A stretch of DNA of 64,000 bases from Gemmatimonadaceae bacterium (GTDB lineage: Bacteria > Gemmatimonadota > Gemmatimonadetes > Gemmatimonadales > Gemmatimonadaceae). This document shows positions 11,334-63,691 of the stretch, piece by piece. The stretch's first letter is position 1, and each line of letters opens with the position of its first letter. The position numbers and the translations under genes were made by a program. The notes below the pieces were generated by a model that made no database searches, was not told the origin of the DNA, and saw nothing but the letters and a program-made list of their open reading frames with translations. The stretch is from positions 21,988 to 85,987 of the forward strand of contig DASYDJ010000068.1 in assembly GCA_036499625.1 (NCBI GenBank). Direction: 5' to 3'.

Positions 11334-11698
11334 CCCAGGAGCGCAGCGACTTGATCGGAAAGGGTCATCGGGTCGAACGGTTTGGCGAGGACGCCACTGA
11401 CGCCGAGTGCCAGCAGGCGCTCGCGTTCGGCGGGGCGTGATTTGGCGGTCAGAAATACCACGGGAATGGCGCGAGTCCGTTCGCCGCGACGTAGAAGCTC
11501 GAAAGTGGCTGGTCCGTCGACGCCGGGCATCATGACGTCGAGCAGAATGGCGTCCGGCGGAGCAGCCGTTGCCGCCTCGACGCCCGCCGGGCCCGACGCG
11601 GCCGTGAGCACCGTCCACGATGCACCGAGCTGCAGAGCCAATTGAGCAATCTCGCGAATGTCGTCGTCGTCATCGATGACGAGCAAAGTCTTCGTCAT
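11321..11698 (-). CDS. Single-domain CheY-like response regulator
   Basis: 125 aa. 'LLVIDDDDD', 'ILLDVMMPGVDG' and 'VVFLTAK'. Confidence 0.9.
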   Translation of the reverse strand: MTKTLLVIDDDDDIREIAQLALQLGASWTVLTAASGPAGVEAATAAPPDAILLDVMMPGVDGPATFELLRRGERTRAIPVVFLTAKSRPAERERLLALGVSGVLAKPFDPMTLSDQVAALLGWSM

Positions 11699-13680
11699 GC
11701 AGTCGCGGATTGCGTCAGAAGGGTCTGTTGCAGCAGCCGATCGATTTCATCGGCCACTTGCCCAGGGTTCGCGGCGGCTTTCGTCATCACGGATGTTCCA
11801 GTCGCGCGCGCGAAGTCGCGTTCATCTGGTTCGAGATACGCGCCGGTGTACAAAATGGTTTTGGTGGAGGGCGAGGTCGCGCGGACGTGACGTATGATCT
11901 GTAGGCCGCTGACGTCTGGCAGGTGAGTATCGACGATCACGGCATTGGCGGGAGTTCCATCGAAGCGCTGCATGGCGTCCTTTCCGAGACTGGCCGTCAT
12001 GACGCGATAGCCGCGCTGTTCGAGGGTCGCCCGTAAGACGACTAGCAGGTCCACGTCGTCATCGCATACCAGGACGAGGGGCGCTGTCGAGACTCCTGGC
12101 GCCGGGGTGTTTCGGACGACGGCGAGCGGAATGGTGAACCGAAAGGTGGTGCCTTCGCCGAGGACGCTCTCGACCCACATCCTGCCGCCGTGCTGCTGCA
12201 CGATGCCTCGGGAGATGGCGAGTCCAAGGCCGCTGCCGCCTTTATCGCGCGAATCGGAAGCATCCACCTGCTGGAAGCGGTCGAACACGCTCTCGAGCTT
12301 GTCCGCCGGAATGCCTCGGCCTTCATCGCGCACCGAGAACGTGGCGAATGTGTCGTCGGCGGTGACCTCAACGATCACGTTCGACCCGGCGGGCGAGAAC
12401 TTGACGGCGTTGTCGACGAGGTTCGTGAGCGTTTGCGCCATCCGGTCCGCGTCGGCCCACACGGCGATGCTGGGCGCTGACCAGTGGACCGCGATTCCCG
12501 CTTTGTCCGCCAGCGGTGTGATGGTCTCGACGACCTGCTCCACCAGATCGCGGACGTCGCACCTGGCTTGCTCGAACGTGGGCGCGTTGGAGTTGATGCG
12601 CTCCACGTCGAGGATGTTGTTGATCAGTCGAATCAGCCGATCCGTATTCGCGGCGGCCAGATCGATCATGCGCTGCCGCTTCTCGACTGACTCTTCGAGC
12701 CGCCCGCTCGCGAGCAAGCCAAGCGCGCCGCGGATGGACGTGAGCGGCGTGCGGAGCTCGTGGCTCACCATCGAGACGAACTCGCCCTTGAGCCGATCGA
12801 CTTCTTTGCGTTCGCTGATGTCGCGCGCGATGATCTGCACTCGGCCGTCGTCGAGCAGCGTCGCGCGCACTTCGACCGGAACGCGCGAGTCGTCTGGGCG
12901 AACGATCCAGAACTCGCCGGTCGTCACCTGGCCATAGCGGAGCATCGGGAGGCCGGCCGGGCGCTTGGGATCATCGCCGCGTAAGAATCCACTGAGCGGC
13001 ATGCCCATGAATTCTGCCTTTGGCCGGCCGATGATGTCGGTGGCACGCGCGTTCGCATCGACGCAGACGGCGTCCGAGTCGACGATGATGATGGCGTCCG
13101 CCGCCTGCTCCATGAGGAGCCGATGTTTCGTTTCACTGTCTTGCAGCGCCATTTCGGTCCGGCGGCGCGCCTCGAGATCGCGATGCAGCAGCGCGAGCGC
13201 CACCCCCATGAGGGTCGTGGCCAGAATGGTACTGAACACGATGATCACGGTGTTCAGCCGCTCCACGTTGGCGGCTTTCGCGATGCGCTCGCCGAGCAGT
13301 TGTCGCTCTTGCGCCTGCATCTCGCCGATGATGGTGAGAATGGGCCCCGGCGGCCCATCGATGAGGCGCGTCAGCGTGTCCAGCCGGGCCTGCTCGACCG
13401 CATTGTCGGCCGTGAGGTCGCGGATCGTCGCGAGCTCGGTGACGGTGGCCGGATCGCTGCCGTGCTCGAGCACGCGTGTCTGGATTTCGATTCGGTCGAG
13501 GTGCCCGAGCACTTCATACGTGTGCGCGACCCAGTCGCCCTCGTTCTGCAGCCGGCGCGTGCTCAGATACGACAGCGCACCGACGAGCACGAGCGCCACG
13601 ACGCCAACCAAGAAGCCGGCGTCAATCGCTGGACGTCCGCGCAGAAATCGGTGAGAACGAGGCCGAGGCATTGCCTTCAA
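11695..13680 (-). CDS. Hybrid sensor histidine kinase (TM sensor-PAS-HisKA-HATPase-REC)
   Basis: 661 aa. N-terminal TM plus a CHASE3-like segment and a PAS domain. H-box 'VSHELRTPLTSI'. HATPase ('DEGRGIP', 'GSGLGLAIS'). C-terminal receiver 'VIVDTHLPDVSG'. Confidence 0.9.
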   Translation of the reverse strand: MKAMPRPRSHRFLRGRPAIDAGFLVGVVALVLVGALSYLSTRRLQNEGDWVAHTYEVLGHLDRIEIQTRVLEHGSDPATVTELATIRDLTADNAVEQARLDTLTRLIDGPPGPILTIIGEMQAQERQLLGERIAKAANVERLNTVIIVFSTILATTLMGVALALLHRDLEARRRTEMALQDSETKHRLLMEQAADAIIIVDSDAVCVDANARATDIIGRPKAEFMGMPLSGFLRGDDPKRPAGLPMLRYGQVTTGEFWIVRPDDSRVPVEVRATLLDDGRVQIIARDISERKEVDRLKGEFVSMVSHELRTPLTSIRGALGLLASGRLEESVEKRQRMIDLAAANTDRLIRLINNILDVERINSNAPTFEQARCDVRDLVEQVVETITPLADKAGIAVHWSAPSIAVWADADRMAQTLTNLVDNAVKFSPAGSNVIVEVTADDTFATFSVRDEGRGIPADKLESVFDRFQQVDASDSRDKGGSGLGLAISRGIVQQHGGRMWVESVLGEGTTFRFTIPLAVVRNTPAPGVSTAPLVLVCDDDVDLLVVLRATLEQRGYRVMTASLGKDAMQRFDGTPANAVIVDTHLPDVSGLQIIRHVRATSPSTKTILYTGAYLEPDERDFARATGTSVMTKAAANPGQVADEIDRLLQQTLLTQSATA

Positions 13681-44042: not shown

Positions 44043-45443
44043 TCAGTTCCGCAGCGCGGACGCGCCGTACTGATATCGCGGCAGGTGAATCCAGAACGTC
44101 GTACCCTGTTCCAGTTCGCTCTTCACGCGAATGAACCCGCCCGACTGTTCCACGATCCCATGCACCGTCGACAATCCGAGCCCGGTGCCTTTGCCCTCCT
44201 CCTTCGTCGTGAAGAACGGCTCGAAAATCTGATCGGTCACCGCCTGCGGCATGCCCTGGCCCGTGTCCGTCACGCTCATCACGACGTACGATCGCGTCGC
44301 CTTCGAGAGCGGACTCTCGGGCACCTCGACATTCGACGACGTGATCTTGAGCTCCCCGCCATTCGGCATCGCGTCGCGCGCGTTCACGACGAGATTGATC
44401 AACACCTGCTCGATCTGGCCGGGGTCGGCAAATACTGGATCGATCTCGTCCGCCAGCTCGAGCGACACCTGGATCTCGTCGCCGACGAGACGCCGCAGAA
44501 TCGGCTGCAGCGTATTGATCGTATCGTTGACCGCGAGCACGCGCGGCCGCAGCACCTGCTTGCGGCTGAACGCCAACAGTTGCCGCGTGAGCGTCGCGCC
44601 GCGACCGGCGGCGTCGAGAATCTCCTGCAGCATCACGCGATCGGGATCCTTCTCCGGACGAACGCTCGCCATGAGCGCGCCCAGGCTCATGATGATCGTG
44701 AGCAGATTGTTGAAGTCGTGCGCGATTCCGCCGGCCAGCCGGCCGATCGCCTCCATTTTCTGCGCATGACGCAACGCCGCCTCGAGCCGACGTTGCTCAG
44801 ACAAATCGCGAACGGAATGCACGTACAGCCCGGGCGCGAACGCACTCGAACGGATGTCGAGTGAGCCCATGAGCGGCGTCAGCACCTCGTGCAGCACCGT
44901 GTCCTTGAGGTCATCCACCGATCGGGACGTCAACGTCACTGCCGCAGGATTCGCGTCGCTGATGCGCTGGCGGTCGTCGGTGATGAACACCGCATCGCCG
45001 ACGCCTTCGAACATCCGCCGCAGCCGCAGCTCGCTCTCCTCGAGCGCCGCCTCGGCGCGCCGCCGTTGCCAGCGCTCCGCCGCGCGTGAGACGCTCGACA
45101 CCAGCTCGTCCGGCGCCACCGGCTTGAGCAAATAGTCATAGCTGTGCTCGCGGATCGCGCGCACCGCGCTCTCGACGCTCGCGTTGCCCGTAAGAATCAA
45201 GACCTCGAGCAGCGGCGATATCGAGCGAAGCCGCGACACGAGGTCCATGCCGTCCATGTCAGGAAGCTTGAGATCCACCAGCGCGATGGCCGGCGGCTCC
45301 TCCAGCGCCGCGAGCGCCGCGAGTCCTTCTCGTCCGGTCCGCGCCGGAATCGTGTTGAACCCGCGAAAGCGAAGGATGTCGGAGACCGTTCGCAACATCT
45401 GCGGGTCGTCGTCGACCATCAGCACGGAAAGTCGGTCAGTCAT
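44043..45443 (-). CDS. REC-PAS-HisKA-HATPase hybrid kinase/response regulator
   Basis: Receiver 'VLMVDDDPQM...ALVDLKLPDMDG', a PAS domain, H-box 'IAHDFNNLLT' and HATPase 'DTGQGMP', 'GTGLGLS'. Confidence 0.9.
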   Translation of the reverse strand: MTDRLSVLMVDDDPQMLRTVSDILRFRGFNTIPARTGREGLAALAALEEPPAIALVDLKLPDMDGMDLVSRLRSISPLLEVLILTGNASVESAVRAIREHSYDYLLKPVAPDELVSSVSRAAERWQRRRAEAALEESELRLRRMFEGVGDAVFITDDRQRISDANPAAVTLTSRSVDDLKDTVLHEVLTPLMGSLDIRSSAFAPGLYVHSVRDLSEQRRLEAALRHAQKMEAIGRLAGGIAHDFNNLLTIIMSLGALMASVRPEKDPDRVMLQEILDAAGRGATLTRQLLAFSRKQVLRPRVLAVNDTINTLQPILRRLVGDEIQVSLELADEIDPVFADPGQIEQVLINLVVNARDAMPNGGELKITSSNVEVPESPLSKATRSYVVMSVTDTGQGMPQAVTDQIFEPFFTTKEEGKGTGLGLSTVHGIVEQSGGFIRVKSELEQGTTFWIHLPRYQYGASALRN

Positions 45444-46173
45444 CGAACGCCTCTTCGAGAAGCTTTAGCAATGTCTCAGGCGGAAACGGTTTGCGCAGCG
45501 TCGCCATCACGTTGCTGGAGATGCCGCTCTCTTCTCCCTGGCGCAACGACGCTTCCGACCCGCTGTACAGAATCAAGCACACCGACGGGTTCACCTTCCG
45601 GATAGCCAGCACCGACGTCTCCGGATCGACGCCATCCAACCGCATGTCGAGCAGCACCACGCCCGGCTCACGAGCCGCGAGCAGCTGCAGGGCACTTCCC
45701 AGGGAGTCGGCGCGGAACGTCACGTACCGATGCGCTTGCAAGATCTCGGCAATCGTCGCCAAATACGCATGATTATCGTCCACGACCAGCACCCGGCGCG
45801 GCGGGTCGGTGATCGTCTCCAGCATCGAGAGCAAGCCGGAAATCAACACCGGCTTTGAGAGAATCCTCACCGCCCCCTGCCGCTCCGCCTCGGCGAGCAA
45901 CTCTGCCGTGGAGTACGCGGTCATGAGCATGACCGGCAGGTCGGGCTTCTCTTCGCGAATGACGCGCAGCGCGTCCACCCCGGTCATGCCGCCCATGCGG
46001 ACGTCCATCAGCACGACGTCGATCTTGTCAGTCGTCGTACGTAAGAACTCCAGAGCGGCTTCGCCCGTGTGCTCGCCGTGAACGTCCCAGCCCTTCATGC
46101 GAAGAATGTCCGACAACGTCCGAACCATCAGCACCTCATCGTCGACGATGAGGATGCGCCTGCTAGGCGTCAT
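45436..46173 (-). CDS. Tandem-receiver (REC-REC) response regulator without output domain
   Basis: 'ILIVDDEV...VLMDVRMGGMTG' and 'VLVVDDNH...VLLDMRLDGVD'. Overlaps both neighbouring genes. Confidence 0.9.
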   Translation of the reverse strand: MTPSRRILIVDDEVLMVRTLSDILRMKGWDVHGEHTGEAALEFLRTTTDKIDVVLMDVRMGGMTGVDALRVIREEKPDLPVMLMTAYSTAELLAEAERQGAVRILSKPVLISGLLSMLETITDPPRRVLVVDDNHAYLATIAEILQAHRYVTFRADSLGSALQLLAAREPGVVLLDMRLDGVDPETSVLAIRKVNPSVCLILYSGSEASLRQGEESGISSNVMATLRKPFPPETLLKLLEEAFDD

Positions 46174-47918
46174 GTTGCGACCGTGGGAACCGTGAGCGTA
46201 AACGTCGTGCCGGCGCCTGCCGCCGTCACGAACGTGAGAGTGCCGGCGTTGTTCTCGGCCAGCATTCGCGACACCGTGAGACCGAGGCCGAGTCCGCGCG
46301 CCTTGGTGGTGAACAATGGTTCGAAGATTTTCGCCGCGACTTCGGGCGGCATGCCGGGACCCGTATCGATCACGTCCAGTGTGATCGTACCGTTGCCGTC
46401 GTGTCGGCCGACGCAGTTGATCGCGCCGCCGGTCTCCACCAAAACCTGCGTCGCGTTCGTCACCAGATTGAACACGACCTGACCGATCTGCACCGGATCA
46501 ATGTTCGCCGTGGGCAACGAGTCGGCGAAATCGTAGTTGACGGTGACGTTGCCGAGCGGTCCCAGACGCTCAACCTGATGCTTCACGAGCGCGGCGACAT
46601 CCGTGGGCGTGCACTGCGGCGTCCGCGTGCGAGCAAAGTCCAGCAGGTCGGCTACGATTTTTTCCGACAGCGAGATCTGCCCGCGCAGAATGCCGAGGTA
46701 GTCCTTCACCAACGGATCGGCGTTCGGCATCACCGTGTCGAGCACGTAGACGGCATTCGTCATGACGCCGAGCGGATTGCGGAGCTCGTGGCCGACGCCG
46801 CCGGCGAGCTGGCCGAGCATCGCCAGTCGCGCGCGCTGAACGTTTTCTTCCTGCGCGATGCGCAAATCGTCGAGCGCCTTTTCCAAATCCGCCGTACGAT
46901 CCTTGACCTGATCCTCGAGCTCGTGGTGGTGCGTCTCGATCTCTTCGGCCATCGCATTGAACGATCGGGCCAAGCGGCCCATCTCGTCGGCCGCGTCAGT
47001 GCGTGCAAGCCGCCGCTGGTAGTCACCATGCGCCAAGGCCTCCGATGCGTGCGCGAGCTCGTCGAGCGGTGCGGTCAACCGCCGAATCGTCCACCACGCG
47101 ACCAGCGCGCCGAAGATGACGACGAGCAGCGCGAGCAGCGTGAGCTGCTTCACCAACGATGTCGCAGGCTCGAGCGCCGTCGCCGTCTCCTGAGCGATCC
47201 AGACGACCCACGGTGTGCCGGCGACGGGAACCGTTGCCCACACGGTGTCGTTGCCAGCGAACGTGCGGCTTGGCTTGCCGTGCAGATCCGCCTCGGCGGG
47301 CGTGATCGGCGCGGGAACCTGCTTTGCCAAGTCCGTCCAGAGCGAGCCGTTCGCGTTGCCGATCAGGAACGACACGTTCTGGCCGACGAGCTGCGAGATC
47401 AGTACAGTGCTGGCCGCGCTGGTCGCGGTGAGCGAGTGGACCTGGACGACGTAGCCGATCGTATCAGCACCCGACAGCACCGGGCCGCGCACCGCGTAGT
47501 CGACGGTGTCGCCGGTCGCGACGAATGGCCCGACGCCGCGCGGTGTCGCGCGCGCAACCTGCGTCGCACTTGGGCTGCCGGCGGCGATCTCGCCGCCGCC
47601 GCTTCGCACGATCAGCAACCCGACCATCTGCGGCGTTGCGCGCTGAATGCTGTCGACGCGACTCTGCGCAGCGGCTTGTCCCGTGGCCGACGCCAGCCAT
47701 GCGTGAATGTCAGGTACAGCGGCAAATCTTTGCGCGTCGGCCGGCGCTCGGCGCGCTGACGGCGTGAGGGCCGCGGCGACTCGGTCGGCGGCGCTGCGCA
47801 GCCGCTCGGTGGTCGACTGCGTGATGGATTTGCGAACGACCCGATAGGCGACGGTAACGACGCCGGCGGTGCACAGCGCGAGCAACAGCGCGACGACCGC
47901 GGGGAGGCGGATGCGCAA
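46170..47918 (-). CDS. Sensor histidine kinase (periplasmic sensor-HAMP-HisKA-HATPase)
   Basis: Two TMs flank a ~250-aa extracytoplasmic domain. HAMP domain, H-box 'VGHELRNPL', 'DTGPGMP' and 'GLGLGLT'. Confidence 0.9.
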   Translation of the reverse strand: MRIRLPAVVALLLALCTAGVVTVAYRVVRKSITQSTTERLRSAADRVAAALTPSARRAPADAQRFAAVPDIHAWLASATGQAAAQSRVDSIQRATPQMVGLLIVRSGGGEIAAGSPSATQVARATPRGVGPFVATGDTVDYAVRGPVLSGADTIGYVVQVHSLTATSAASTVLISQLVGQNVSFLIGNANGSLWTDLAKQVPAPITPAEADLHGKPSRTFAGNDTVWATVPVAGTPWVVWIAQETATALEPATSLVKQLTLLALLVVIFGALVAWWTIRRLTAPLDELAHASEALAHGDYQRRLARTDAADEMGRLARSFNAMAEEIETHHHELEDQVKDRTADLEKALDDLRIAQEENVQRARLAMLGQLAGGVGHELRNPLGVMTNAVYVLDTVMPNADPLVKDYLGILRGQISLSEKIVADLLDFARTRTPQCTPTDVAALVKHQVERLGPLGNVTVNYDFADSLPTANIDPVQIGQVVFNLVTNATQVLVETGGAINCVGRHDGNGTITLDVIDTGPGMPPEVAAKIFEPLFTTKARGLGLGLTVSRMLAENNAGTLTFVTAAGAGTTFTLTVPTVAT

Positions 47919-48996: not shown

Positions 48997-50337
48997 TTAG
49001 CGCTCGCCCCGGTGCGGAACGGCGCGCATGTCCGCTTCCAGTGCCGTGAATCCGTCGCGCCAATAGCGCGCTTCGTCCGACACGACCGACGCGTCGATGT
49101 CGCCGAGTGCGTGCGAGCCCAGCCCGCCGAGGAAACGCATGATGGTGCTTTCCTGGACGTCGAGCCGCGTGCGCCGGCTGAAGATCGATTGTTCGCCGAC
49201 GCTGTCGCGCACGGAGACTCGGAAGACCGCACCGCCATCCTCGAACGGACGACGCAGCGGCGTGCGAATCAACCGCTCGGCGACGAACGGCAGATCCCAC
49301 TTCGGTTCGTGTTGCGCCACCACGGCCCAGCCGCGATCGTGGCCGGCGTTCGTAATCACGAAGTCCGTGAGCAAACTGTGAAAACCGACAGTGAATAGCT
49401 TGACCTTGAGCGAGAGATCAGCTGTGAGCTGCACGGTATCGGGCCATGCACGCGGTGGTCCGAACAGCGATGTGAGCTTGCCGCCTTGGAGGCGGTAGCG
49501 AAGCGTCGCCTGTCGATCGCGCCCGACGACGTCGAAGAGCTCCGTACCCGCGCGGTCAGCGAAGGCGAGATGATACTTCGCGGGTCCGAGATACTTGTCG
49601 ACGTAGGACGTGAGTGCCGGATACGTCGGTCGCATGAGCTCAGGGTGGAAACCGATCGTGACCACGACGCTCGTGAAACCGCCGGCGCTGGGGACGACGT
49701 GCAGCGAGTCGATGGCGAGTCCGCGGCCGAACGCCGCCATCGCGCGCGGGACCGCCGCGCGGTAGTTATCGCGCACTTCGCGATCGGTGCGACCTTCTGG
49801 TGCGGCAAGCAACGCCGACACGAGTCCGCTCACGTCGGCCGCCGATACGTCGCCGACTGACATGTCGACGCGCGTGTCCCACCGATATACGGAAGGAGCC
49901 AGGCGCTCGAGCGACACGAAGTGTCGCGAATCGCCGGGGTGCGCTGGCACAGTGAGCGACGGACGCATCTCGATGAAGTAGTGTCCGTCGACCGTGGTGC
50001 CGCCCGCGTACAGCTCGCGAAGCGCGGCCGACGGTTTGGCGCTCCAGGTGGCGTCGTCGTCGAAGATGCCGGAGGGAACCAACGCGGACTTGGCGAGCTT
50101 TTTCCGCGCGGCTTCGTAGCCGGGCGAGAATTGCGGTTGGTTGAAGCGCGCGCGGAAGGCGTCGAAGAGCTGGCTCGCGTTCGACTCGGCCAGCGCGGGC
50201 GTGGGGCCGAGTGAGGGGAGGGAATCGCTGCAGGCGGAGGTCGAGGCGGCGAGCGCGGCGGCTGCTACGGCAAAAGCAGTAACAGACCGTCGGAGGGTGG
50301 CGGACCGGCGGAGCGCGGGCGTGCTCGAATTGTGCAA
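48997..50337 (-). CDS. Hypothetical lipoprotein (start uncertain)
   Basis: The track ORF runs to 50547 but would overlap tRNA-Gln antisense. I trimmed it to TTG 50337, which gives 'HNSSTPALRRSATLRRSVTAFAVAAAALAASTSAC' (basic n-region plus lipobox). No recognisable domain. Confidence 0.55.
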   Translation of the reverse strand: MHNSSTPALRRSATLRRSVTAFAVAAAALAASTSACSDSLPSLGPTPALAESNASQLFDAFRARFNQPQFSPGYEAARKKLAKSALVPSGIFDDDATWSAKPSAALRELYAGGTTVDGHYFIEMRPSLTVPAHPGDSRHFVSLERLAPSVYRWDTRVDMSVGDVSAADVSGLVSALLAAPEGRTDREVRDNYRAAVPRAMAAFGRGLAIDSLHVVPSAGGFTSVVVTIGFHPELMRPTYPALTSYVDKYLGPAKYHLAFADRAGTELFDVVGRDRQATLRYRLQGGKLTSLFGPPRAWPDTVQLTADLSLKVKLFTVGFHSLLTDFVITNAGHDRGWAVVAQHEPKWDLPFVAERLIRTPLRRPFEDGGAVFRVSVRDSVGEQSIFSRRTRLDVQESTIMRFLGGLGSHALGDIDASVVSDEARYWRDGFTALEADMRAVPHRGER

Positions 50338-50398
50338 GCGAAAGTCGTTTCTGAGGTTACCGTGCGGCGGGCGGGTGGTGCGGGGAGGGTGTGCGGGG

Positions 50399-50427
50399 TT
50401 GATCGGGTGTGGAGTGCAAACTATAAT
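50399..50427 (+). promoter_or_regulatory. Sigma70-like promoter for tRNA-Gln
   Basis: TTGATC (50399-50404), 17 nt, perfect TATAAT (50422-50427), about 95 nt upstream of the tRNA. Confidence 0.5.
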
Positions 50428-50522
50428 CAGAGGGCTGGGGGAATGGGGACGGGTTGGTCTAGGGTGGTTGGGAAGCCCAGTGGCGGGTGTTTGAGGTTTG
50501 TTTGTACAGAATGAAAGATCAT

Positions 50523-50595
50523 TGCCCCTTGGTGTAACTGGCAACACGCCTGACTCTGGATCAGGAGAGTCCTAGTTCGAGCCTAGGAGGGGCAA
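50523..50595 (+). tRNA. tRNA-Gln (anticodon CTG)
   Basis: Acceptor TGCCCCT/AGGGGCA, D-stem GTGT/ACAC, anticodon stem CCTGA/TCAGG with loop CTCTGGA, T-arm CCTAG-TTCGAGC-CTAGG. CCA is not encoded. Confidence 0.9.
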
Positions 50596-55844: not shown

Positions 55845-57434
55845 TCAGAGACTCGACCGCCGCCGGTCGGAGCCGGATGTTCTGCGCTCCTGGTTGGGAT
55901 CGCTGCGTGCGTCGAGCTGGCTGTCGTATTTCGTCCACTCGCGCTCCAGGTCGAGCGGCGACACGTAGTCCGGATTGCCCGCCATGATGCCGGTGACGTT
56001 CCGAAAGCGCGGACCGAGATGCATGCCGTGTTCGTCGATCGTGAATGCGTGAATGCCTTTGTCGTGCGTCGAGCCGCGCATCTTGAGCACCGTCAACCCG
56101 CGCTGCATCTCGCCGAACATCTCGACGTACCGCAGCAGAATGATCGAATCGGTGAGCGTGGAGATGTGGCCTTCGGTGATCGAGGAGCCGCCCATGAGCG
56201 ACGCGGTCGTCGCCGTGAACAAGCCGGTGATCTCCTGGTGCTTGATGAACGACGTGAGTCCGATCACGAACTCGCGAAACGCCTTGATCGTGCCCACGCG
56301 CTCCATTGCCGAAAGACTATCCAGCGCGACGCGCTGCGGCTTGAACTCCTTGATCATCCCTTCGATCGTGAGGAGCCAGTCCTCGAGCGTCGCGACTTCG
56401 GGATAGTCGCAGACGACGCGCAGCAGTCCGTCGCTTTCCATCTTCTCGAAGTCGACGCCCCAGCCCGTCGCGTTCCGGAAGAGCTGATCGCGACTCTCCT
56501 CGAACGCCAGCAGCAAGCATCGCTCGCCCATGTCGGCGGCGCCCTTCATGAACTGGGTGACCGTCAGCGTCTTGCCGGTGCCGGTGGCGCCGGACACGAG
56601 AATTACCGAATCTCTAAAGAAGCCGCCGCCGCACATTTGGTCGAGCTCCGGGTTGCCCGACGACACGCGAATGTTCGACGACTTCTGCTTGAGCTGAATG
56701 CCCGACAGAGGAATCACGACGAGTCCGAGGTCGGGCACGATCGTGACCGGAAACTCGCCCTTCTGGTGGTCGGTGCCGCGGAATTTGAGAATCTCGATCG
56801 TCCGGCGGCGCGACTCCTCCTCGAGGACGTTGCGAAGGACCATCACGTTGTCGGCGATGAACTCTTCCACACCGAATCGCGCGATCGGCCCATAGTCCAG
56901 CGTCCGTTCGGCCGTCAGTAGCGCTGTGACGCCCATGCGCTTGAGGGCCCACGCAATGCGGAACAGTTCGCGCCGAACGATGGACTGATCAGAAAACTGT
57001 GAGAAGATCGCGCCGAGTGAATCGACTGATACGCGCTTGGCGTTGACCTTCTTTACCGCGTACTCCACGCGAGCCAGCAGCGCGCTGAGATCGAACGCCC
57101 CGCTCTCGACCATCTCGGTTTCGGGATCCGGGGACGCATCGACCATCGCGAGCCGCCCGTCACGTTCCCACTCGTCCAGATCCCAGCCAAAGCTCCGCAT
57201 GTTGTCGCGGATGTCGTCAGCCGACTCCTCGAACGTCACGAACACGCCATGCTGGTCGGCTTCGAGAAGGCCGGCGGCGAGAAATTGCACCGCGAACACC
57301 GTCTTGCCGCTGCCGGCCGTTCCCGACAGCAGGGTTGTGCGACCTTCAGGCAGGCCGCCCTTGGCAATGATGTCGAAGCTTGGAATTCCAGTGGAGACTT
57401 TCTTGACGGGGGACCGCTTGACGACGTCGGTCAT
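55845..57434 (-). CDS. kaiC: Circadian clock protein KaiC homologue (double RecA-like ATPase)
   Basis: 529 aa. Walker A 'GTAGSGKT' and 'GATGTGKT'. 'FEES' in both halves. Phosphosite context 'EGHISTLTDSIILLRYVEMFGEM'. Confidence 0.93.
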   Translation of the reverse strand: MTDVVKRSPVKKVSTGIPSFDIIAKGGLPEGRTTLLSGTAGSGKTVFAVQFLAAGLLEADQHGVFVTFEESADDIRDNMRSFGWDLDEWERDGRLAMVDASPDPETEMVESGAFDLSALLARVEYAVKKVNAKRVSVDSLGAIFSQFSDQSIVRRELFRIAWALKRMGVTALLTAERTLDYGPIARFGVEEFIADNVMVLRNVLEEESRRRTIEILKFRGTDHQKGEFPVTIVPDLGLVVIPLSGIQLKQKSSNIRVSSGNPELDQMCGGGFFRDSVILVSGATGTGKTLTVTQFMKGAADMGERCLLLAFEESRDQLFRNATGWGVDFEKMESDGLLRVVCDYPEVATLEDWLLTIEGMIKEFKPQRVALDSLSAMERVGTIKAFREFVIGLTSFIKHQEITGLFTATTASLMGGSSITEGHISTLTDSIILLRYVEMFGEMQRGLTVLKMRGSTHDKGIHAFTIDEHGMHLGPRFRNVTGIMAGNPDYVSPLDLEREWTKYDSQLDARSDPNQERRTSGSDRRRSSL

Positions 57435-57763
57435 TTCTCAGTGGGTTTGTTGGCAGCCTTGCGGGCGGCGTGAAGCTCGAGACCGACGAGCAATTTGTCT
57501 TTATCCGACAGATCGCCAACGACGCGGCGAAGCGGCGGAGGCAGTCGCTTGATCAGCGTCGGTGTGGCGAGGATCTTCGCTTCTTCGGCACGTTCGGGGT
57601 GCTCGAGCACGTCCACGATCTCAAGGTCGTATTCGCCGCACAGCTCACCTTCGCACACATGGCGAAGGTTGGCGATCGCAAGATCGGCACGAGGGCTCGA
57701 GCCGGTAATGAACAACGTGAGCAAGTATTGAGGCTGCTCGTCGGATCGTTGGTGGTCGGGCAT
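57431..57763 (-). CDS. kaiB: Circadian clock protein KaiB homologue
   Basis: ATG 57763 chosen (track ORF starts at 57904). 'LTLFITGSSPRADLAIANL' and 'ILATPTLIKRLPPPLRRVVGDLSD'. The stop overlaps the kaiC start (ATGA). Confidence 0.9.
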   Translation of the reverse strand: MPDHQRSDEQPQYLLTLFITGSSPRADLAIANLRHVCEGELCGEYDLEIVDVLEHPERAEEAKILATPTLIKRLPPPLRRVVGDLSDKDKLLVGLELHAARKAANKPTEK

Positions 57764-57916
57764 CGTCCACGCCTCTGGAGCGGCGACGTCGTCGTCTGCC
57801 GCTGGTGGCAGAGTGCTCGGTCGCGAGCTGTTTGAATTTCGTGCGCGCGTCACGACGCTGGCAAGATGCGTCTCTGCGCGCCGGGCTGAACAAGCAGGTT
57901 CCACGCCAAGTCACCG

Positions 57917-59626
57917 GTGCAAACGCACACGGACTCGGGCATGGAGTTTGAATTTGTGGTCGGCATGAACCCCGAGTCGCGAACCGGAGACGATCGGCGT
58001 CGGCGCAATCGCCTCGAGCAGCAGCGGCTCGAGGCGATCGTGGATCGCATTGCCGACGGGGTGCTGGTCGTCGACAACGACGGGATGATCAAATTCGCCA
58101 ACCCCGCCGCGGAACAGCTATTCGGCCGCTCGGCGCAGGAGCTGACCAGGGGCGACTTCGGGTTTCCGGTCGTAGCAGCCGACAAATCAGAGATCGAAGT
58201 GATTCGCCCGGCAGCGCCGCCGATGACCGCCGAAGTCCGCGTCGTCGACACCGAGTGGGCTGGCGAGCCGGCCCATCTCGTATCGCTCCGCGACATCAGC
58301 GATCGAAAGCGCGCCGAGGAGCGCGCGGCGGAGCTCGAGGTCGAGCGGATTGCTCGCGCGAAAGCCGAAGCCGCAAATCAGGCGAAGTCGGAATTTCTGA
58401 CGCTCATGAGCCATGAGCTGCGGACGCCGCTGAACGCAGTGATCGGCTATGCGGATTTGCTCGATCTGGGGATTGGTGGAACGCTCGAGCCCCTCCATCA
58501 ACAGCACGTCTCGCGCATTCGCGCGAGCGGCCGGCACCTGCTCGGCCTCGTCAACGAGCTGCTCGACCTGGCCAAAGTGGAGAGCGGTACGCTGTCGGTG
58601 CACCGGAGCATCGGCTTCGCCACGAGTACCATATCGGACGTGTTGGCGCTCATACGGCCGCTGGCCGATTCGCGTCGAATCGCGTTGACGGTGAAGTCGT
58701 CTCCCGTCGACGCGCGATACGAAGGCGACATCGATCGCGTGCGACAGGTGCTGGTGAATCTATTCAGCAATGCGATCAAGTTCACCGAGCCGGGCGGGGA
58801 AGTGACCATCGAGTGGGAAAAGGCCATGGAGTCGGATGCCGGCTCGCGATTGCTCGGTCGCGGACCGTGGCTTCGCATTCGCGTGTGCGACACAGGCATC
58901 GGCATGCCGGCGCAAAAGCTCTCGCGCATCTTCGATCCGTTCGTGCAGCTCGAGAGCAGTCACACGCGGACGAAGGAAGGTTCGGGTCTTGGCCTGACAC
59001 TCAGCCGGCGTCTCGCGCGGTTGATGAATGGCGATCTCACCGTGCGCAGCGCGGTTGGTCACGGATCGACGTTCACGCTGTGGTTGCGCGAGCCGGGTGC
59101 GGACGCGCAGGGGTCGGAGCGCGTGGCCGATGCGACGCAAGGCGACGCACCGCGACGCGTGGAGGGATTGGCCGACGTCGGTAACATGATTGTTCGCGAG
59201 CTCGCGCACATTACCGAGCGGTTCGTAACGCGCTTGCGCAGCGAGGATGGACTGGGAAAATCCCGCCGACTGTCGCGAACCGAGTTGGCGGATCACGTCG
59301 GGACGTTCGTCGCCAACATCGGCGGCTTGCTCGCCGCGATCGAAGAAGGAAAGGGCCAGCCGTCGAGCGTACTCGCCGATGCGGCGCAGATTCAGTCGAC
59401 GATCGCGGACCGCCATGGCGCGCAGCGCGCGCAGCTCGGATGGACGCAGGAGATCATGCGTCGCGAATGGACGATCTTGTGCGAGGAAATCGAGTCGGTG
59501 ATTGCCTCCCACACGGACGACGTGCCCGAGGCGGCAATCGCCGAATCAGTTTCGATCGTCGAACGGTTGATCGAGCAGGCGAACGAGGTCAGTTGCCGCG
59601 CGATGCAGCGCACGGCATTTCACTAG
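57917..59626 (+). CDS. PAS-HisKA-HATPase histidine kinase with extra C-terminal helical domain
   Basis: PAS 'VDRIADGVLVVDNDGMIKFANPAAEQLFG', H-box 'MSHELRTPLNAV', HATPase 'DTGIGMP', 'GSGLGLTLS', then ~180 further residues. GTG 57917 or ATG 57941 start. No TM. Confidence 0.88.
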   Translation: MQTHTDSGMEFEFVVGMNPESRTGDDRRRRNRLEQQRLEAIVDRIADGVLVVDNDGMIKFANPAAEQLFGRSAQELTRGDFGFPVVAADKSEIEVIRPAAPPMTAEVRVVDTEWAGEPAHLVSLRDISDRKRAEERAAELEVERIARAKAEAANQAKSEFLTLMSHELRTPLNAVIGYADLLDLGIGGTLEPLHQQHVSRIRASGRHLLGLVNELLDLAKVESGTLSVHRSIGFATSTISDVLALIRPLADSRRIALTVKSSPVDARYEGDIDRVRQVLVNLFSNAIKFTEPGGEVTIEWEKAMESDAGSRLLGRGPWLRIRVCDTGIGMPAQKLSRIFDPFVQLESSHTRTKEGSGLGLTLSRRLARLMNGDLTVRSAVGHGSTFTLWLREPGADAQGSERVADATQGDAPRRVEGLADVGNMIVRELAHITERFVTRLRSEDGLGKSRRLSRTELADHVGTFVANIGGLLAAIEEGKGQPSSVLADAAQIQSTIADRHGAQRAQLGWTQEIMRREWTILCEEIESVIASHTDDVPEAAIAESVSIVERLIEQANEVSCRAMQRTAFH

Positions 59627-59646
59627 AACTGGCTTCAAACACGATT

Positions 59647-59737
59647 GTCATTCCGAGCGAAGCGAGGAATCTTCCGTCTTTCTCGAGATCTCGATCACAC
59701 ACACGAGATCCCTCGTCGCTGCGCTCCTCGGGATGAC
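59647..59737. repeat. Family-1 palindromic intergenic element, copy 4
   Basis: GTCATTCCGAGCGAAGCGAGGAATC ... GATCCCTCGTCGCTGCGCTCCTCGGGATGAC. The termini are identical to copy 1 and the core differs. It lies between convergent stops (59626 and 59746). Confidence 0.9.
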
Positions 59738-59745
59738 AACTTCGA

Positions 59746-60939
59746 TCACACCTCGACGAGCATCGACACGACGGACTTGGTGGCGAAGCTGATCCACTGC
59801 TGGTGAATGCGCTCCACCAAGCTCTCGCTCACCTCCTGACCGCGCGCCACGAGCAGCATCCCGTTCTCGGCGCGGACTTCGGCGGCGAACACCATACCCA
59901 CGCGTACCTGCGATAGCCGCATGTCCTGCAGCGCGACACGCGCCGCCCGCGTGCCCTGCAACGCGGTGAACATGGCGAGGAGCTTGGGGTCGTACCAACC
60001 CGGGTGCTGCGCCATCGTACCCAGGGCATCGCTCGCAGCCAACCCGCGCAAGTCGAGCATGTCGAAGTCGAGCACGATCTTGAGCATGCGCGCGCCAATC
60101 GGAATTGCTTCGCCCACGGTGCCGGCATTCGTCATCGCACCGTCGCCGCTGCGTCCGTCGAACCGCGTGTCCTGGAAGCGTAGAATCTCTCGAACCGCAT
60201 CGAGCCGCGGAATGTCGCCGATCAACCGCTCGGCTGTCGCCGGCAATTTGGCAATGATTTGTCGTTCCGAATCGGAGAGGCGTTCGCCGGCATAGAACCG
60301 ATCGACGCTCTCGGCCGGCAGCGCGGCGTACCCGACTTGCGACAACATCGCGGCGATTTCGATCGACCACTGGTCACGCACGTTGGCGCGGACGGCGAGA
60401 TCGGCAACCAAGCGTCGCACGCGCGTAGCGCGACCAAACGCCTGCGGCTGCGCGAGCGCCAACACGTCGATGAGCGCCTTGATGCTTCCGTGAAGTGTTT
60501 GCTCCAGCAGCACACGCTCTGCCGTGACGAGTCTGTGCTGCTCTGCCGCGGCTGACACCGCGGTACGCAACACGTCGGGCGCGCATGGCTTCGTGAGAAA
60601 GCGAAAGATCTGGCCGCGATTCACCGCGGCGACCGCGGTATCGAGATCGCCGTTGCCGGTGAGCAGAATGCGCACGGTGTCGGGCGCGATCTCGCAGACT
60701 TGAACGAGGAACGTCACGCCATCGGTGCCGGGCATGCGATAATCGGAGACGACTACCGCATACGGCGGATCGCTGCGAACGTGCGCGAGTCCCTCGGCTG
60801 CCGAGCTAGCGACAGTGACGTCGAACAAGGTGCCGAGCACGCGACTGAGGACGCCCGAGATTGCAAGGTCGTCGTCGACGCAGAGGATGCGTGGAAGAGC
60901 GTCGGTTTTGCCTTTCGCTGCAGCTGTCACGTGATCCAA
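59746..60939 (-). CDS. Response regulator: REC + degenerate (catalytically dead) HD-GYP-like domain + C-terminal domain
   Basis: Receiver 'ILCVDDDLAI...VVSDYRMPGTDG...FLTKP'. The HD-GYP-like region has its metal/catalytic motifs replaced ('FGRATRV', 'MLSQVGY', 'RFQDTRFDGRSGDG'), but 'IPIGARMLKIVLDFD' is retained. Confidence 0.85.
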   Translation of the reverse strand: MDHVTAAAKGKTDALPRILCVDDDLAISGVLSRVLGTLFDVTVASSAAEGLAHVRSDPPYAVVVSDYRMPGTDGVTFLVQVCEIAPDTVRILLTGNGDLDTAVAAVNRGQIFRFLTKPCAPDVLRTAVSAAAEQHRLVTAERVLLEQTLHGSIKALIDVLALAQPQAFGRATRVRRLVADLAVRANVRDQWSIEIAAMLSQVGYAALPAESVDRFYAGERLSDSERQIIAKLPATAERLIGDIPRLDAVREILRFQDTRFDGRSGDGAMTNAGTVGEAIPIGARMLKIVLDFDMLDLRGLAASDALGTMAQHPGWYDPKLLAMFTALQGTRAARVALQDMRLSQVRVGMVFAAEVRAENGMLLVARGQEVSESLVERIHQQWISFATKSVVSMLVEV

Positions 60940-63281
60940 TCCGCGCCGGGTTTCGTTGACTGCGGCCCGCCCCGCGCCGCTACGAAAGCGCGCGCAACGC
61001 TCGGCGCAGTGAACGGCTTCTCGAGGAATACGATACCGCTCGCCGACGACTCGTCGCCGCTCGCGACGTCTTCGGCGTATCCCGACATGAGAATGACGGG
61101 CAGCTCCGGCTTTTCCTGGCGCAGTATCGCCGCGAGCTCCAATCCGCCTTGCCCCGGCATCACGGCATCGGTGAGCACAATGTCGAACCGCTGGCCGTCG
61201 GCGCGAACGACGGCCAGCGCCGCCGCGACGTTTTCGACCGGCATCACTGTGTGCCCGAGTTGTTCGAGCACCGCTTTCGCCGCGAGGCGCACAGACGGAT
61301 CGTCTTCGACCAACAGGACGGTGGCAGGCTCGACTGCCGGCAGCGCCGACACGCCGGCGTCGTCGAGCGATTGTACCGCCGATTCGTCGGCCGGAAAATA
61401 AATCTTGAACGTCGTGCCCATTCCGGGCTCGCTGTACACGTAGATGCTGCCCCCTGATTGGCGTACGATGCCGTACACCATTGCCAAGCCGAGGCCAGTA
61501 CCTTGCCCGGCTTCCTTGGTCGTGAAGAACGGCTCGAAGATCCGATCGAGAGTATCGGCATCCATTCCCATTCCCGTGTCGCGCACGGACAGCACGACAT
61601 GCGGTCCCGGCGTTCCGCCCGTGTGAAGAGCGACAAACGTGTCATCGAGCATGGCACTGGACGTCTCGATGACCAGCGACCCTCCCGTCGGCATGGCATC
61701 GCGCGCGTTGACGGCAAGGTTCATGAGCACTTGCTCGAGTTGTCCGCGATCTACGCAGATCGGATACGCGGTCTCGTCGAGCGCGGTGCTCATGGCGATG
61801 TTCGCGGGCATGACTCGCGTGAGCATCGACATGAACTCGATAACTGTCGCGTTGAGATTCAGCAGCGTGGGATGAAGCACCTGCTTGCGGCTGAACGCCA
61901 ACAGTTGTCGCGTGAGCGCCGAGGCGCGATCGGCACCTGTTCGAATCTTGGTGAGGTCGGCTCGCGACGTGTCGGTAAGCGCCTCGTCAGCGAGCACCAG
62001 ATCGGTGTAGCTGATGATGACGGTGAGAATGTTGTTGAAGTCGTGCGCAACGCCGCCGGCGAGCCGCCCGATGGCTTCCATTTTATGTGCCTGCTGGAGT
62101 TGACCCTCCAGCTTCTCCGCTCGCGCATGCGACTGACGTTCGGCATCGCGTGCGCGCGTGAGATCGCCGATTGTCTCGCGCAACTGCTCGTTCGACTCCT
62201 CGAGCTCTACCTGCTGAATCTCGAGCTCCGTCTGCTGGTTCTCCAACTCGAATGACGCAGTCTGAATGGCCTGGGCCATGTTGTTGAACGCGACGGCGAG
62301 GCGTCCCACCTCGTCGTTGCGAACCGCGGGCACGCGGGTGGAGTAATCGCCGCCGGCAATCCCTTCGGCCGCGTGAGTCAGCCCGGACAACGGCGCAATG
62401 ATGTGTCGTCCCAGCACCCGCGCAGCCACGCCGCCGAGCACGATGACGCCGAGCGCGACGAGCAGCAGGTACATGAGAAAGTTGTGCGCGTCCGCGAGCA
62501 CTTCGGCTTCCGGGCGCGCCACCCAGACCGCCCATGGCGAGCCGCTCACCGCCGACAACGCGCCGATCCACTTGGTGCCGTCGGCCATCGCGACATCGCC
62601 GCTGTGCGCGTTCAGCTGCGTGCTCGGCGGGCCATCGACGCGCGTGTCGAGATTCGTCCAGAGATTCCCCGAGACATTCCCGACGAGCAGTATGGCTTTA
62701 CCGCCGATCAATCCGCTCAGCAGTTTTGCCGACGTCGTGGACGACGCGCGCGCGAGCTCGCGCACGTAGCCGAGTGTATCTCCGGCCTCGCCAAGCACGG
62801 GGAGACGTGTATCGGTAATGACGGTGTCGTGCAACGCGATGAGCGGCCCTACCGGCGAGCTGCGGCGATTCGCCGGCGCGAGCGGAAGCGCTGTGTCGCC
62901 TGCGACCGCGATGCGCGCGCCACGTGCGTCGCGCAACTCCACGAGCATGACGACCGGACTGCGCGCCAGCTCGTCGGCGATGTGGCGTTGCGCCGCGGCA
63001 AGAGTCGGCGCACTTGGCCGCGCCAACACGTTCCGCAGCGTCGAATCGTGAGAGAGCGGCGAGCCTTCACGCGCGAGCTTCACGTTCGACTGCGCGAACG
63101 AGGACGAAATCTCCTCCGACACGCCCATCATGTGTTCGCCAACGGCCGCAATGCGGGCGCGTTTCATCTCGACGTATGCCGTGGTCGCAATCACCACCAC
63201 TGCAATCGCCAGGAGTACGGTTGTGAGGAGCGGAAGCTTGCGGCCAATGTCCTGCCAGTCGCCACCGCGCCCGGTGTTCAC
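60927..63281 (-). CDS. Hybrid sensor histidine kinase (periplasmic sensor-HAMP-coiled coil-HisKA-HATPase-REC)
   Basis: 784 aa. Two TMs, HAMP domain, H-box '[10 protein letters not shown]', 'DTGMGMD', 'GTGLGLAMV' and receiver 'VLLVEDDPS...[12 protein letters not shown]'. Confidence 0.9.
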
Positions 63282-63691
63282 GCGGAAGATCCTCCACGTC
63301 GTGGTCGACGCTCGAGCAGTTCACGGACGGCCGCCGACAGCTCCTCGGGAGTAAACGGCTTCGGAAGAAACGCCGTGGGCGTTCCCACGAGATCGGCCAT
63401 CGAATTCGCCGGCTGCGGATAGCCCGATACCATGAGGAAGCGAATGGACGGATACCACGCCCGGAGCTGCTCGAGCAGTTTCCAGCCGCTCATCTGCGGC
63501 ATGTTCACGTCGCTGACGATCAGATGGATGGGCGCGGCATATTCGGCGGCCACGTCGAGTGCGTCTTGGCCGTTGGCTGCTTCTAGTACGTGATACGACT
63601 CGCCACCAAGCACGAAGCCGATGAGCTCGCGTATCTCAGCGTCGTCGTCGACGACAAGAACCGTTTCTGCGTCGAAGATGGGTGCTCCCAC
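63278..63691 (-). CDS. Single-domain CheY-like response regulator
   Basis: 137 aa. 'VLVVDDDAEI', 'LIVSDVNMPQMSG' and 'FLPKP'. GTG start with GGGAGA upstream. The stop overlaps the hybrid kinase start. Confidence 0.9.
   Translation of the reverse strand: MGAPIFDAETVLVVDDDAEIRELIGFVLGGESYHVLEAANGQDALDVAAEYAAPIHLIVSDVNMPQMSGWKLLEQLRAWYPSIRFLMVSGYPQPANSMADLVGTPTAFLPKPFTPEELSAAVRELLERRPRRGGSSA

Follow-up and report, generated by a model that had tools for sequence, protein, structure and literature searches.

The stretch of DNA analysed here (hereafter the window) comprises 64,000 nucleotides (nt) of a Gemmatimonadaceae bacterium (contig DASYDJ010000068.1, positions 21,988 to 85,987). It carries a kaiB-kaiC gene pair and, divergent from kaiB, the gene of a histidine kinase, HK1, which ends in a globin-like domain. 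Both kai genes are single-copy in the window. The stop codon of kaiB overlaps the start codon of kaiC as ATGA at 57431-57434 (...GAG AAA TGA / ATG ACC...), as had been proposed in an earlier interpretation made from the letters of the window and its open reading frames (ORFs), here called the sequence-only reading. The six ORFs that it had listed for the module and its neighbours are likewise all present where it had placed them. We conclude with high confidence that the functional unit consists of three genes, kaiB-kaiC and the divergent HK1, and the positions of these genes, of the elements discussed below and of the neighbouring signalling genes are collected in Table 1.

Table 1. Genes, domains and sites of the kaiBC-HK1 module and other signalling genes of the window (aa, amino acids)
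Feature	Position	Strand	Description or basis
kaiB	57431..57763	(-)	110 aa, translationally coupled to kaiC
kaiC	55845..57434	(-)	double-domain KaiC, 529 aa, group I-III (KaiC1/KaiC3-like) type
Codons of S425 and T426, putative phosphosites	56157..56162	(-)	translation GHISTLT; alignment to 4o0m S431/T432
KaiC C-terminal region, aa 477-529	55848..56006	(-)	A-loop FRNVTG, then SPxD[LIV]ERxW, then variable Arg-rich [DE]RRR tail
HK1	57965..59626 (favoured ATG start)	(+)	Arg-rich N-terminus, PAS, HisKA, HATPase_c, globin-like domain (Pfam and model)
Kai-type PAS of HK1, aa 41-150 of the 569-aa ORF	58037..58366	(+)	likeness to the first PAS of HK2
Sensor-globin-like domain of HK1, aa 407-569	59135..59623	(+)	AlphaFold2 model, Foldseek, hhalign
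Invariant His460 and His500 of HK1	codons 59294-59296, 59414-59416	(+)	family alignment
Sigma-54-like -24/-12 element, GGCATGGAGTTTGA	57938..57951	(+)	points into the HK1 gene
REC and HD_5 gene	59746-60939	(-)	no HD, HHE or GYP motif
Hybrid HAMP kinase	60927-63281	(-)	784 aa, two transmembrane segments, HAMP
Hpt-REC-REC-GGDEF next to PAS hybrid kinase	9687-13680	(-)	other two-component cluster of the window
HAMP kinase, double-REC protein and REC-PAS kinase	44043-47918	(-)	other two-component cluster of the window

The composition of the module was compared with related loci from 80 Gemmatimonadota species (one genome per species scanned, KaiC identity 72-81%), using tblastn of all window neighbours, six-frame profile searches and a kinase-core search, and with two closer relatives whose KaiC identity is 93% (L087) and 83% (L089). 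In all 80 loci kaiB lies directly upstream of kaiC. Sixty-six of them have at least 2.4 kb of flank upstream of kaiB, and a divergent kinase core occupies that position in 61 of these, a full-length HK1 orthologue with the globin-like domain (44-59% identity) being present in 53 of the 66. Enough flank 3′ of kaiC is available in 55 loci and both flanks in 49, and in 48 of the latter one or more kinases adjoin the pair. All-against-all clustering of the neighbouring ORFs revealed no other neighbour conserved around kaiB-kaiC and the kinases, and the REC/HD_5, HAMP hybrid kinase, CheY and DUF1800 genes found beside the module in the window are kept in the 93% relative, gone in the 83% relative and found in none of the 80 related loci. 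Of the partners that the sequence-only reading had suggested, the PAS kinase is thus conserved, but the REC/pseudo-HD-GYP gene, the hybrid kinase and CheY are not, and its view of KaiBC as embedded in a phosphorelay or cyclic di-GMP (c-di-GMP) neighbourhood was not borne out: since those genes are absent from the 80 loci and from the 83% relative, we regard that neighbourhood as incidental. In this same 83% relative (L089, 6130-12572) the module itself is rearranged, with no kaiB called between the divergent kinase and kaiC. Downstream of kaiC, instead, a convergent gene for a KaiB of 100 aa shares an operon with that of an 859-aa kinase made of two kinase cores and a receiver.

KaiC exceeds the cut-offs of both full-length NCBIfam equivalog models (NF006799, 703.2 bits against a cut-off of 408; TIGR02655, 649.4 bits against 546.25), and PF06745 matches it twice, once for each of two RecA-like domains. 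Its Walker A loops (GTAGSGKT at aa 38-45 and GATGTGKT at aa 282-289) and EE pairs (FEES at aa 68-71 and 311-314) are kept in 117-120 of the 120 KaiC orthologues over which motif conservation was counted. The motif HISTLTD occupies aa 423-429, with HIST retained in 105 of the 120 orthologues, and a HMMER alignment to 4o0m places T420, S425 and T426 on T426, S431 and T432 of T. elongatus KaiC. Motif positions, alignment and profile scores therefore agree with the sequence-only reading, which had called the gene kaiC and had claimed both Walker A loops, both EE pairs and a Ser-Thr pair equivalent to S431/T432. Such a Ser-Thr pair is typical of KaiC1 and KaiC3. Autokinase, autophosphatase and ATPase activities and a hexameric assembly are predicted. 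The identity of the gene is not new, since an identical KaiC (P0001, 100%) from a Gemmatimonadaceae metagenome-assembled genome (MAG) is already named as such by NCBI and JGI. In the structure database the closest match is 8zn5 (715 bits, 66.7% identity); cyanobacterial KaiCs come next with about 590-610 bits (57.2% identity for that of T. elongatus), and the KaiC of the Rhodobacter sphaeroides hourglass (8dba) reaches 314 bits. The 8zn5 protein is the reconstructed ancestor KaiC-beta, at the node leading to groups I-III, and is reported to be non-oscillating and to have a temperature-dependent ATPase (PMC12081879). Judged by match scores, the window KaiC is nearest to reconstructed KaiC-beta rather than to the Rhodobacter KaiC.

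The A-loop of this KaiC reads FRNVTG and has Thr at the position of the cyanobacterial Glu487. The form FRN[VIT]TG is found in 104 of the 120 orthologues and Glu at the Glu487 position in none of them. In S. elongatus KaiC an E487A change gives KaiA independence. A link between kinase activity without KaiA and the loss of residues that bury the A-loop has been described (PMC5520375). Behind the A-loop follow SPxD[LIV]ERxW, in 112 of the 120 orthologues, and a tail (...ERRTSGSDRRRSSL) whose Arg-rich [DE]RRR motif occurs in 90 of the 120, at about 100 times the background. The basic, Ser-rich tail that the sequence-only reading had singled out is indeed present, but as an added feature it was misjudged: because the Arg-rich tail is missing from several species, we consider it a lineage-variable, low-complexity stretch. 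A coiled coil of the Rhodobacter type was ruled out for this tail, which is short, Arg/Ser-rich, of low complexity and variable among orthologues. The idea that SPxD..ERxW co-varies with the globin-bearing kinase was also rejected, as each of the 13 loci without that kinase still has the motif. As a separate observation, an Arg-rich motif, G-x-DRRR, is common to the KaiC tail (55848-55890, ...RRTSGSDRRRSSL) and to the N-terminus of the kinase (57965-58010, ...SRTGDDRRRRNR); [DE]RRR is found in the 90 KaiC tails, often in two or three copies, as well as in 44 kinase N-termini out of 120, compared with a background of 0.29 per 1000 aa, and the shared motif is absent in some species.

KaiB matches Pfam PF07689 with 90.6 bits (gathering score 27) over profile positions 2-81 of 82. 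In an alignment of residues 11-97 to the cyanobacterial KaiB 2qke, its Y13, G94 and E96 correspond to Y8, G89 and D91, and the position of T. elongatus Y94 is not aligned or conserved; these four residues of the T. elongatus protein are determinants of the KaiB fold switch. The absence of a KaiA-like ORF from the window, claimed in the sequence-only reading, was confirmed in that none of the 28 window ORFs scanned gave a KaiA family match. The gene immediately upstream of kaiB3 in kaiA3B3C3 clusters is kaiA3, a slot that is taken in the window by HK1 and in most related loci by a divergent kinase.

The longest ORF of HK1 starts with a GTG and spans 57917-59626 (569 aa), and the start used by NCBI is the ATG at 57941. 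We favour a third codon, the ATG at 57965 (MNPESRTGDDRRRR), which would make the transcript almost leaderless, on account of the promoter element described below and of the orthologue P0125. The spacer between kaiB and HK1 measures 153, 177 or 201 nt with these three starts, respectively, so that the length of about 150 nt given in the sequence-only reading holds for the GTG but not for either ATG. No transmembrane-like segment is present in HK1, and 26 orthologues show no variation in its H-box or in its N, G1 and G2 boxes. A soluble PAS histidine kinase divergent from kaiB, as described earlier, is therefore what the locus encodes, but it is not a plain PAS kinase, since it has a sensor-globin-like domain at its C-terminus. 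It is not SasA-like either, in agreement with the previous description, because the SasA model NF006800 gives 101 bits, below its cut-off of 342, over residues 153-388 (the kinase core) only, and the N-terminus is a PAS domain. Nor was a pseudo-receiver domain found in HK1.

The PAS domain of HK1 belongs to a subfamily that it shares only with HK2, a second kind of kinase adjacent to kaiBC. Compared with the first PAS of HK2 it reaches 41-55% identity and 74-116 bits, against 28.9 bits for the best other PAS in the window. HK2 has the order PAS-(GAF or PAS)-HisKA-HATPase_c, without the globin-like domain, and in 15 of the 55 loci with sufficient flank it follows kaiC immediately, on the same strand, either together with HK1 or in its place (the loci include L013, L017, L018, L024, L025, L027, L029, L061, L062, L064, L065 and L074); no HK2 was found downstream of kaiC in the window genome. 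Since HK1 and HK2 share this PAS and HK2 has no globin-like domain, the PAS subfamily is the constant element of the Kai-adjacent kinases and the second sensor an exchangeable one. This pattern fits two precedents, namely the binding of Pseudomonas KaiC to a neighbouring kinase through the N-terminal PAS of that kinase (bioRxiv 10.1101/2022.01.26.477890) and the binding of KaiB by the PAS domains of KidA (PMC9478674), and by analogy we suggest with moderate confidence that the HK1 PAS contacts KaiC or KaiB.

The C-terminal domain of HK1 is cryptic at the sequence level. The last 175 aa of the kinase gave no Pfam match even at E = 10, and the alignment of the domain gave no PDB match in a sequence-profile search; however, about 160 residues after HATPase_c are conserved among the HK1 orthologues. 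An AlphaFold2 model built from 21 orthologues is all-helical and of high confidence (predicted local distance difference test, 91.3; predicted template modelling score, 0.87). In a Foldseek search of the PDB with this model, eight of the top ten matches were globins of globin-coupled sensors (probability 1.00, template modelling score 0.62-0.64), BpeGReg, E. coli DosC, AfGcHK and GsGCS being among the top matches, and the modelled domain is thus predicted to have the sensor-globin fold. When the domain profile was aligned with E. coli K-12 DosC using hhalign, His500 fell on the proximal haem ligand His98, in the block AQIQSTIADRH(GAQR)AQLGW against IQIQHTVAEVH----ARIGIP of DosC. Among 141 members of the domain family with at most 50% mutual identity, His460 is conserved in 99%, His500 in 100%, Gly501 in 99%, Arg504 in 100% and Trp509 in 96%.

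When the domain alone served as query, a word-indexed search gave only three matches, and a full-length search and an exhaustive profile search took its place. The family so delineated comprises 722 clusters at the 50% identity level (representatives P0244-P0392), has no Pfam-A model and no sequence relative in the PDB, and bears the signature DH...(about 40 residues)...HGxxR...GW. Throughout these clusters the domain stands at the C-terminus of the protein, and ten of ten sampled members are kinases of the type (PAS/GAF/CHASE3)n-HisKA-HATPase_c.

The spacer between kaiB and HK1 contains a conserved element with the appearance of a sigma-54 promoter. A promoter of this kind has GG at -24 and GC at -12 at a fixed spacing (TGGCAC-N5-TTGCW). 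Of 64 orthologous spacers between kaiB and the kinase, 47 contain the pattern GGC-N2-R-N4-TTG[CA] facing the kinase and 3 contain it facing the other way, and the density of the -24/-12 pattern is 2.5 per kb in the spacers against a background of 0.077 per kb. Close relatives read GGCA[CT]G-N4-[CT]TTGA and more distant ones, at that place and facing the same way, GGCCCG-N4-GTTGCAT(TA), and in the 93% relative the element is identical to that of the window. The conserved flanks around a variable 4-nt core and the GG-N10-G spacing are the grounds on which we liken it to a sigma-54 promoter, and HK1 appears, as far as such a pattern can indicate, to be expressed from a promoter of this type. Its overlap with the start annotated at 57941 speaks for the ATG at 57965 as the true one, and the 5' end of the HK1 mRNA is predicted near 57962-57965. 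The possibility that the block is instead conserved as the coding N-terminus of HK1 (MEFE...) was rejected, because many relatives have ACG or ATA there and one starts about 150 nt later. Scans for sigma-70 promoters and intrinsic terminators, around kaiBC and between convergent gene ends, gave nothing useful.

The signalling genes on the other side of HK1 have the domains and the layout that had been ascribed to them in the sequence-only reading, a REC-pseudo-HD-GYP protein, a hybrid HAMP kinase and a CheY, all convergent to the PAS kinase. The REC-HD_5 protein scores 219 against a NosR-family model, below the cut-off of 400. In the 93% relative (L087, 3356-4546) the hybrid kinase has only 396 aa (HisKA-HATPase_c-REC), without HAMP and the sensor part; the latter has been gained or lost recently. 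Such neighbours are unremarkable, since the window has at least two more two-component clusters (Table 1), and signalling genes are generally dense across it. Elsewhere in the window an ORF of 516 aa (48997-50547, minus strand) has no Pfam match; the related locus L021 has a homologue of it with 36% identity, some 5 kb upstream of kaiC.

Taken together, our data suggest a KaiA-independent, hourglass-type KaiBC switch that is read out through HK1, an account that we hold to be reasonably probable as a whole. KaiC would form a hexamer, act as a double ATPase and phosphorylate its own S425/T426 with no need of KaiA, and KaiB, which shows some hallmarks of the fold switch, would bind phosphorylated KaiC and promote its dephosphorylation, the two together forming a switch driven by the environment with no self-sustained oscillator. 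Hourglass-type behaviour is proposed, with moderate confidence, because neither KaiA nor KaiA3 is present in cis and because Glu487, which holds the cyanobacterial KaiC 'off', is replaced by Thr. The Kai-type PAS of HK1 would dock on KaiC or KaiB, so that the balance between kinase and phosphatase activities of HK1 toward an unlinked response regulator would follow the state of KaiBC. The globin-like domain, haem-bound probably via His500 with His460 on the distal side, would add an input of O2, NO, CO or redox, and HK1 itself would be transcribed from the sigma-54-type promoter. The part of this scheme that concerns haem sensing we put at even chances or a little under.

Several observations weigh against this account. 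KaiB stays under both NCBIfam equivalog cut-offs (NF006798, 93.9 against 110; TIGR02654, 91.6 against 145.3), so that by that criterion the protein is a diverged KaiB and not a cyanobacterial-type orthologue. A KaiA or KaiA3 may lie outside the window. Thirteen of the 66 species have no globin-like domain beside kaiBC, no response regulator is conserved in cis in the related loci, and the globin-like domain is not specific to Kai, an idea that was rejected when four other members that were looked up proved to lie away from kaiBC; for this reason we consider the domain a general kinase accessory. The Foldseek E-values of the domain are only about 1e-2, and the hhalign match to DosC, with 33% identity over 66 columns, has E = 0.013 and a probability score of 3%. 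The distal Tyr B10 of sensor globins, read off the DosC sequence, appears to be Val in HK1, which is the reason why His460 is put forward as a candidate distal ligand. As to the promoter, the element of the window reads GGCATG-N4-TTGA, in which the spacing fits but the C at -12 is replaced by A (TTGA, not TTGC), and within the window alone the -24/-12 pattern is not above chance. Finally, we found no paper on KaiC in Gemmatimonadota in the searchable literature, nor any experiment on a Kai protein of this phylum.

Other explanations differ from this account in the role of the switch, in the direction of signalling or in the partner. KaiBC and HK1 could be a switch that responds to stress or to the energy state, a two-component module gated by an ATPase as with the KaiC homologues of Legionella and Pseudomonas and unrelated to day and night, and we consider this unlikely, even though no diel physiology is known from soil Gemmatimonadaceae (no paper was found that ties them to Kai), KaiC-beta-like proteins do not oscillate, and the window contains stress genes (Usp and a KGG repeat protein) and nothing photosynthetic. 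Pseudomonas KaiC-kinase modules do affect stress resistance rather than rhythms (bioRxiv 10.1101/2022.01.26.477890); however, unlike in Pseudomonas, a kaiB gene is present here and in every case coupled to kaiC, KaiC retains the S/T phosphosite pair, T426 and the two EE pairs of the clock proteins, and the KaiBC systems of Rhodopseudomonas and Rhodobacter do time diel processes. Mechanistically an hourglass and an energy-state switch are the same device, and the difference lies mainly in the physiological role. Alternatively, HK1 could act upstream, its globin-like and PAS domains sensing O2 or redox and resetting or entraining KaiC by binding or through kaiBC expression, which is doubtful but deserves consideration. 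A sensor-globin fold with invariant histidines points to a sensing role, and divergent promoters would permit co-regulation, some species having back-to-back sigma-54-like elements that face both ways. The redox sensors CikA, KaiA and LdpA feed the cyanobacterial clock, a further point in favour of HK1 as an input. However, the kinase core is fully intact, with an invariant H-box and invariant N, G1 and G2 boxes, which implies that phosphate is passed to a response regulator, and in the 13 species without the globin-like domain Kai-adjacent kinases are nevertheless kept. In HK2 a GAF or PAS replaces that domain, so that the sensor is exchangeable and the Kai-type PAS is what stays constant.

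A need for a response regulator could also be met nearby, with KaiBC wired to the adjacent operon of CheY, hybrid HAMP kinase and REC/pseudo-HD-GYP protein as a phosphorelay or c-di-GMP output. HK1 does require such a regulator, REC-containing proteins are close at hand, and the genes are adjacent both in the window and in the 93% relative, but we regard this wiring as highly improbable in view of their absence from the 80 loci and from the 83% relative and of the unequal length of the hybrid kinase (396 against 784 aa); moreover, CheY, the hybrid kinase and REC-HD_5 form an overlapping operon of their own, convergent to HK1, and the HD-GYP catalytic motifs are lost. Concerning the globin-like domain, it may be a haem-free module of globin fold, as in RsbR, that serves for dimerisation or docking only. 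Non-haem sensor globins exist (the N-domain of RsbR is one), and the absence of Tyr B10, of sequence similarity to Pfam or PDB entries and of strong fold-search E-values speaks for this possibility, which we entertain tentatively against the invariance of two His and one Arg (99-100%) over the 141 family members and the coincidence of the invariant His with the proximal His of DosC within a similar F-helix motif (QIQSTIADRH against QIQHTVAEVH). The KaiA-independent hourglass read out through HK1 could further be extended to the entire clade, as an ancestral, pre-oscillator KaiBC timer under sigma-54 control, entrained by daily swings of O2 or redox and not by light. Its dedicated partner would then be a 'reverse' globin-coupled kinase of a new class, in which the Kai-specific PAS would sense the state of KaiC/KaiB and a C-terminal bis-His haem globin would signal O2 or redox. 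Soil Gemmatimonadota are mostly non-phototrophic. This extension is speculative, and we think it rather improbable in its entirety.

Outside cyanobacteria, the wiring of KaiBC to inputs and outputs has been studied in only a few purple bacteria. The adjacency of kaiBC clusters to kinases outside cyanobacteria was already noted in 2011 (PMC3164672), and the present locus adds to it an unstudied clade of at least 80 species-level Gemmatimonadota genomes, several of them from soil-labelled MAG sets, whose KaiC stands nearer to the cyanobacterial lineage than does that of the Rhodobacter model. It also narrows the candidate partner to one kinase with a Kai-type PAS, a cryptic globin-like domain with two invariant His and a sigma-54-like promoter. 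In the searchable literature we did not find this Gemmatimonadota clade, its group I-III affinity, the Kai-type PAS subfamily, the C-terminal sensor-globin-like domain or the sigma-54-like promoter, and no relevant paper turned up there on KaiC together with globin-coupled sensors or on a kinase with a C-terminal globin.

Among known systems, the KaiBC hourglass of Rhodobacter sphaeroides and Rhodopseudomonas palustris (KaiC2, group IV; PMC10076222, PMC4794148) resembles the window module in being KaiA-less and non-cyanobacterial, with kaiB and kaiC adjacent and a kinase gene nearby, and in both the environment, and not a self-sustained rhythm, is the expected driver. However, the window KaiC scores only 314 bits against 8dba and about 600 bits against cyanobacterial KaiCs, and whereas the Rhodobacter KaiC2 has a Ser-Ser pair and a coiled coil of about 50 residues (PMC10076222), the window KaiC has Ser-Thr and a short, variable, Arg-rich tail. 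With group III or KaiC3 proteins (Synechocystis KaiA3-KaiB3-KaiC3, Rhodospirillum rubrum KaiC) and with KaiC-beta (PMC12081879; bioRxiv 10.1101/2021.07.20.453058) it shares the S/T phosphosites, T426 and the loss of the residues that bury the A-loop, a likeness drawn from match scores and not from phylogeny. In kaiA3B3C3 clusters, however, kaiA3 precedes kaiB3, whereas the window and 61 of the 66 loci have a divergent histidine kinase instead. As in the KaiC-like/kinase modules of Pseudomonas (bioRxiv 10.1101/2022.01.26.477890), the KaiC homologue is virtually always found beside a kinase, but the Pseudomonas modules have no KaiB, distant KaiCs and a co-operonic kinase, and the kinase of the window is divergent and has the additional globin-like domain.

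Like HK1, the cyanobacterial SasA and CikA are soluble kinases; their activity is set by KaiC/KaiB complexes, and CikA also integrates redox. SasA, however, has a KaiB-like N-domain of thioredoxin fold where HK1 has a PAS, and no RpaA-like regulator is encoded in cis in the window. With the globin-coupled sensors (AfGcHK, DosC, BpeGReg, HemAT) the modelled domain of HK1 shares the pre-A, A, B, C, E, F, G and H helices and the coupling to a signalling output, and one of its conserved His aligns with the proximal position. In the usual layout of these sensors, for instance in AfGcHK, the globin is N-terminal and precedes the output domain. Unlike them, HK1 has its globin-like domain at the C-terminus, after HATPase_c, and outside the Pfam protoglobin and globin families, and if it does bind haem, HK1 would be a globin-coupled kinase of inverted domain order that links a Kai timer to the sensing of gas or redox.

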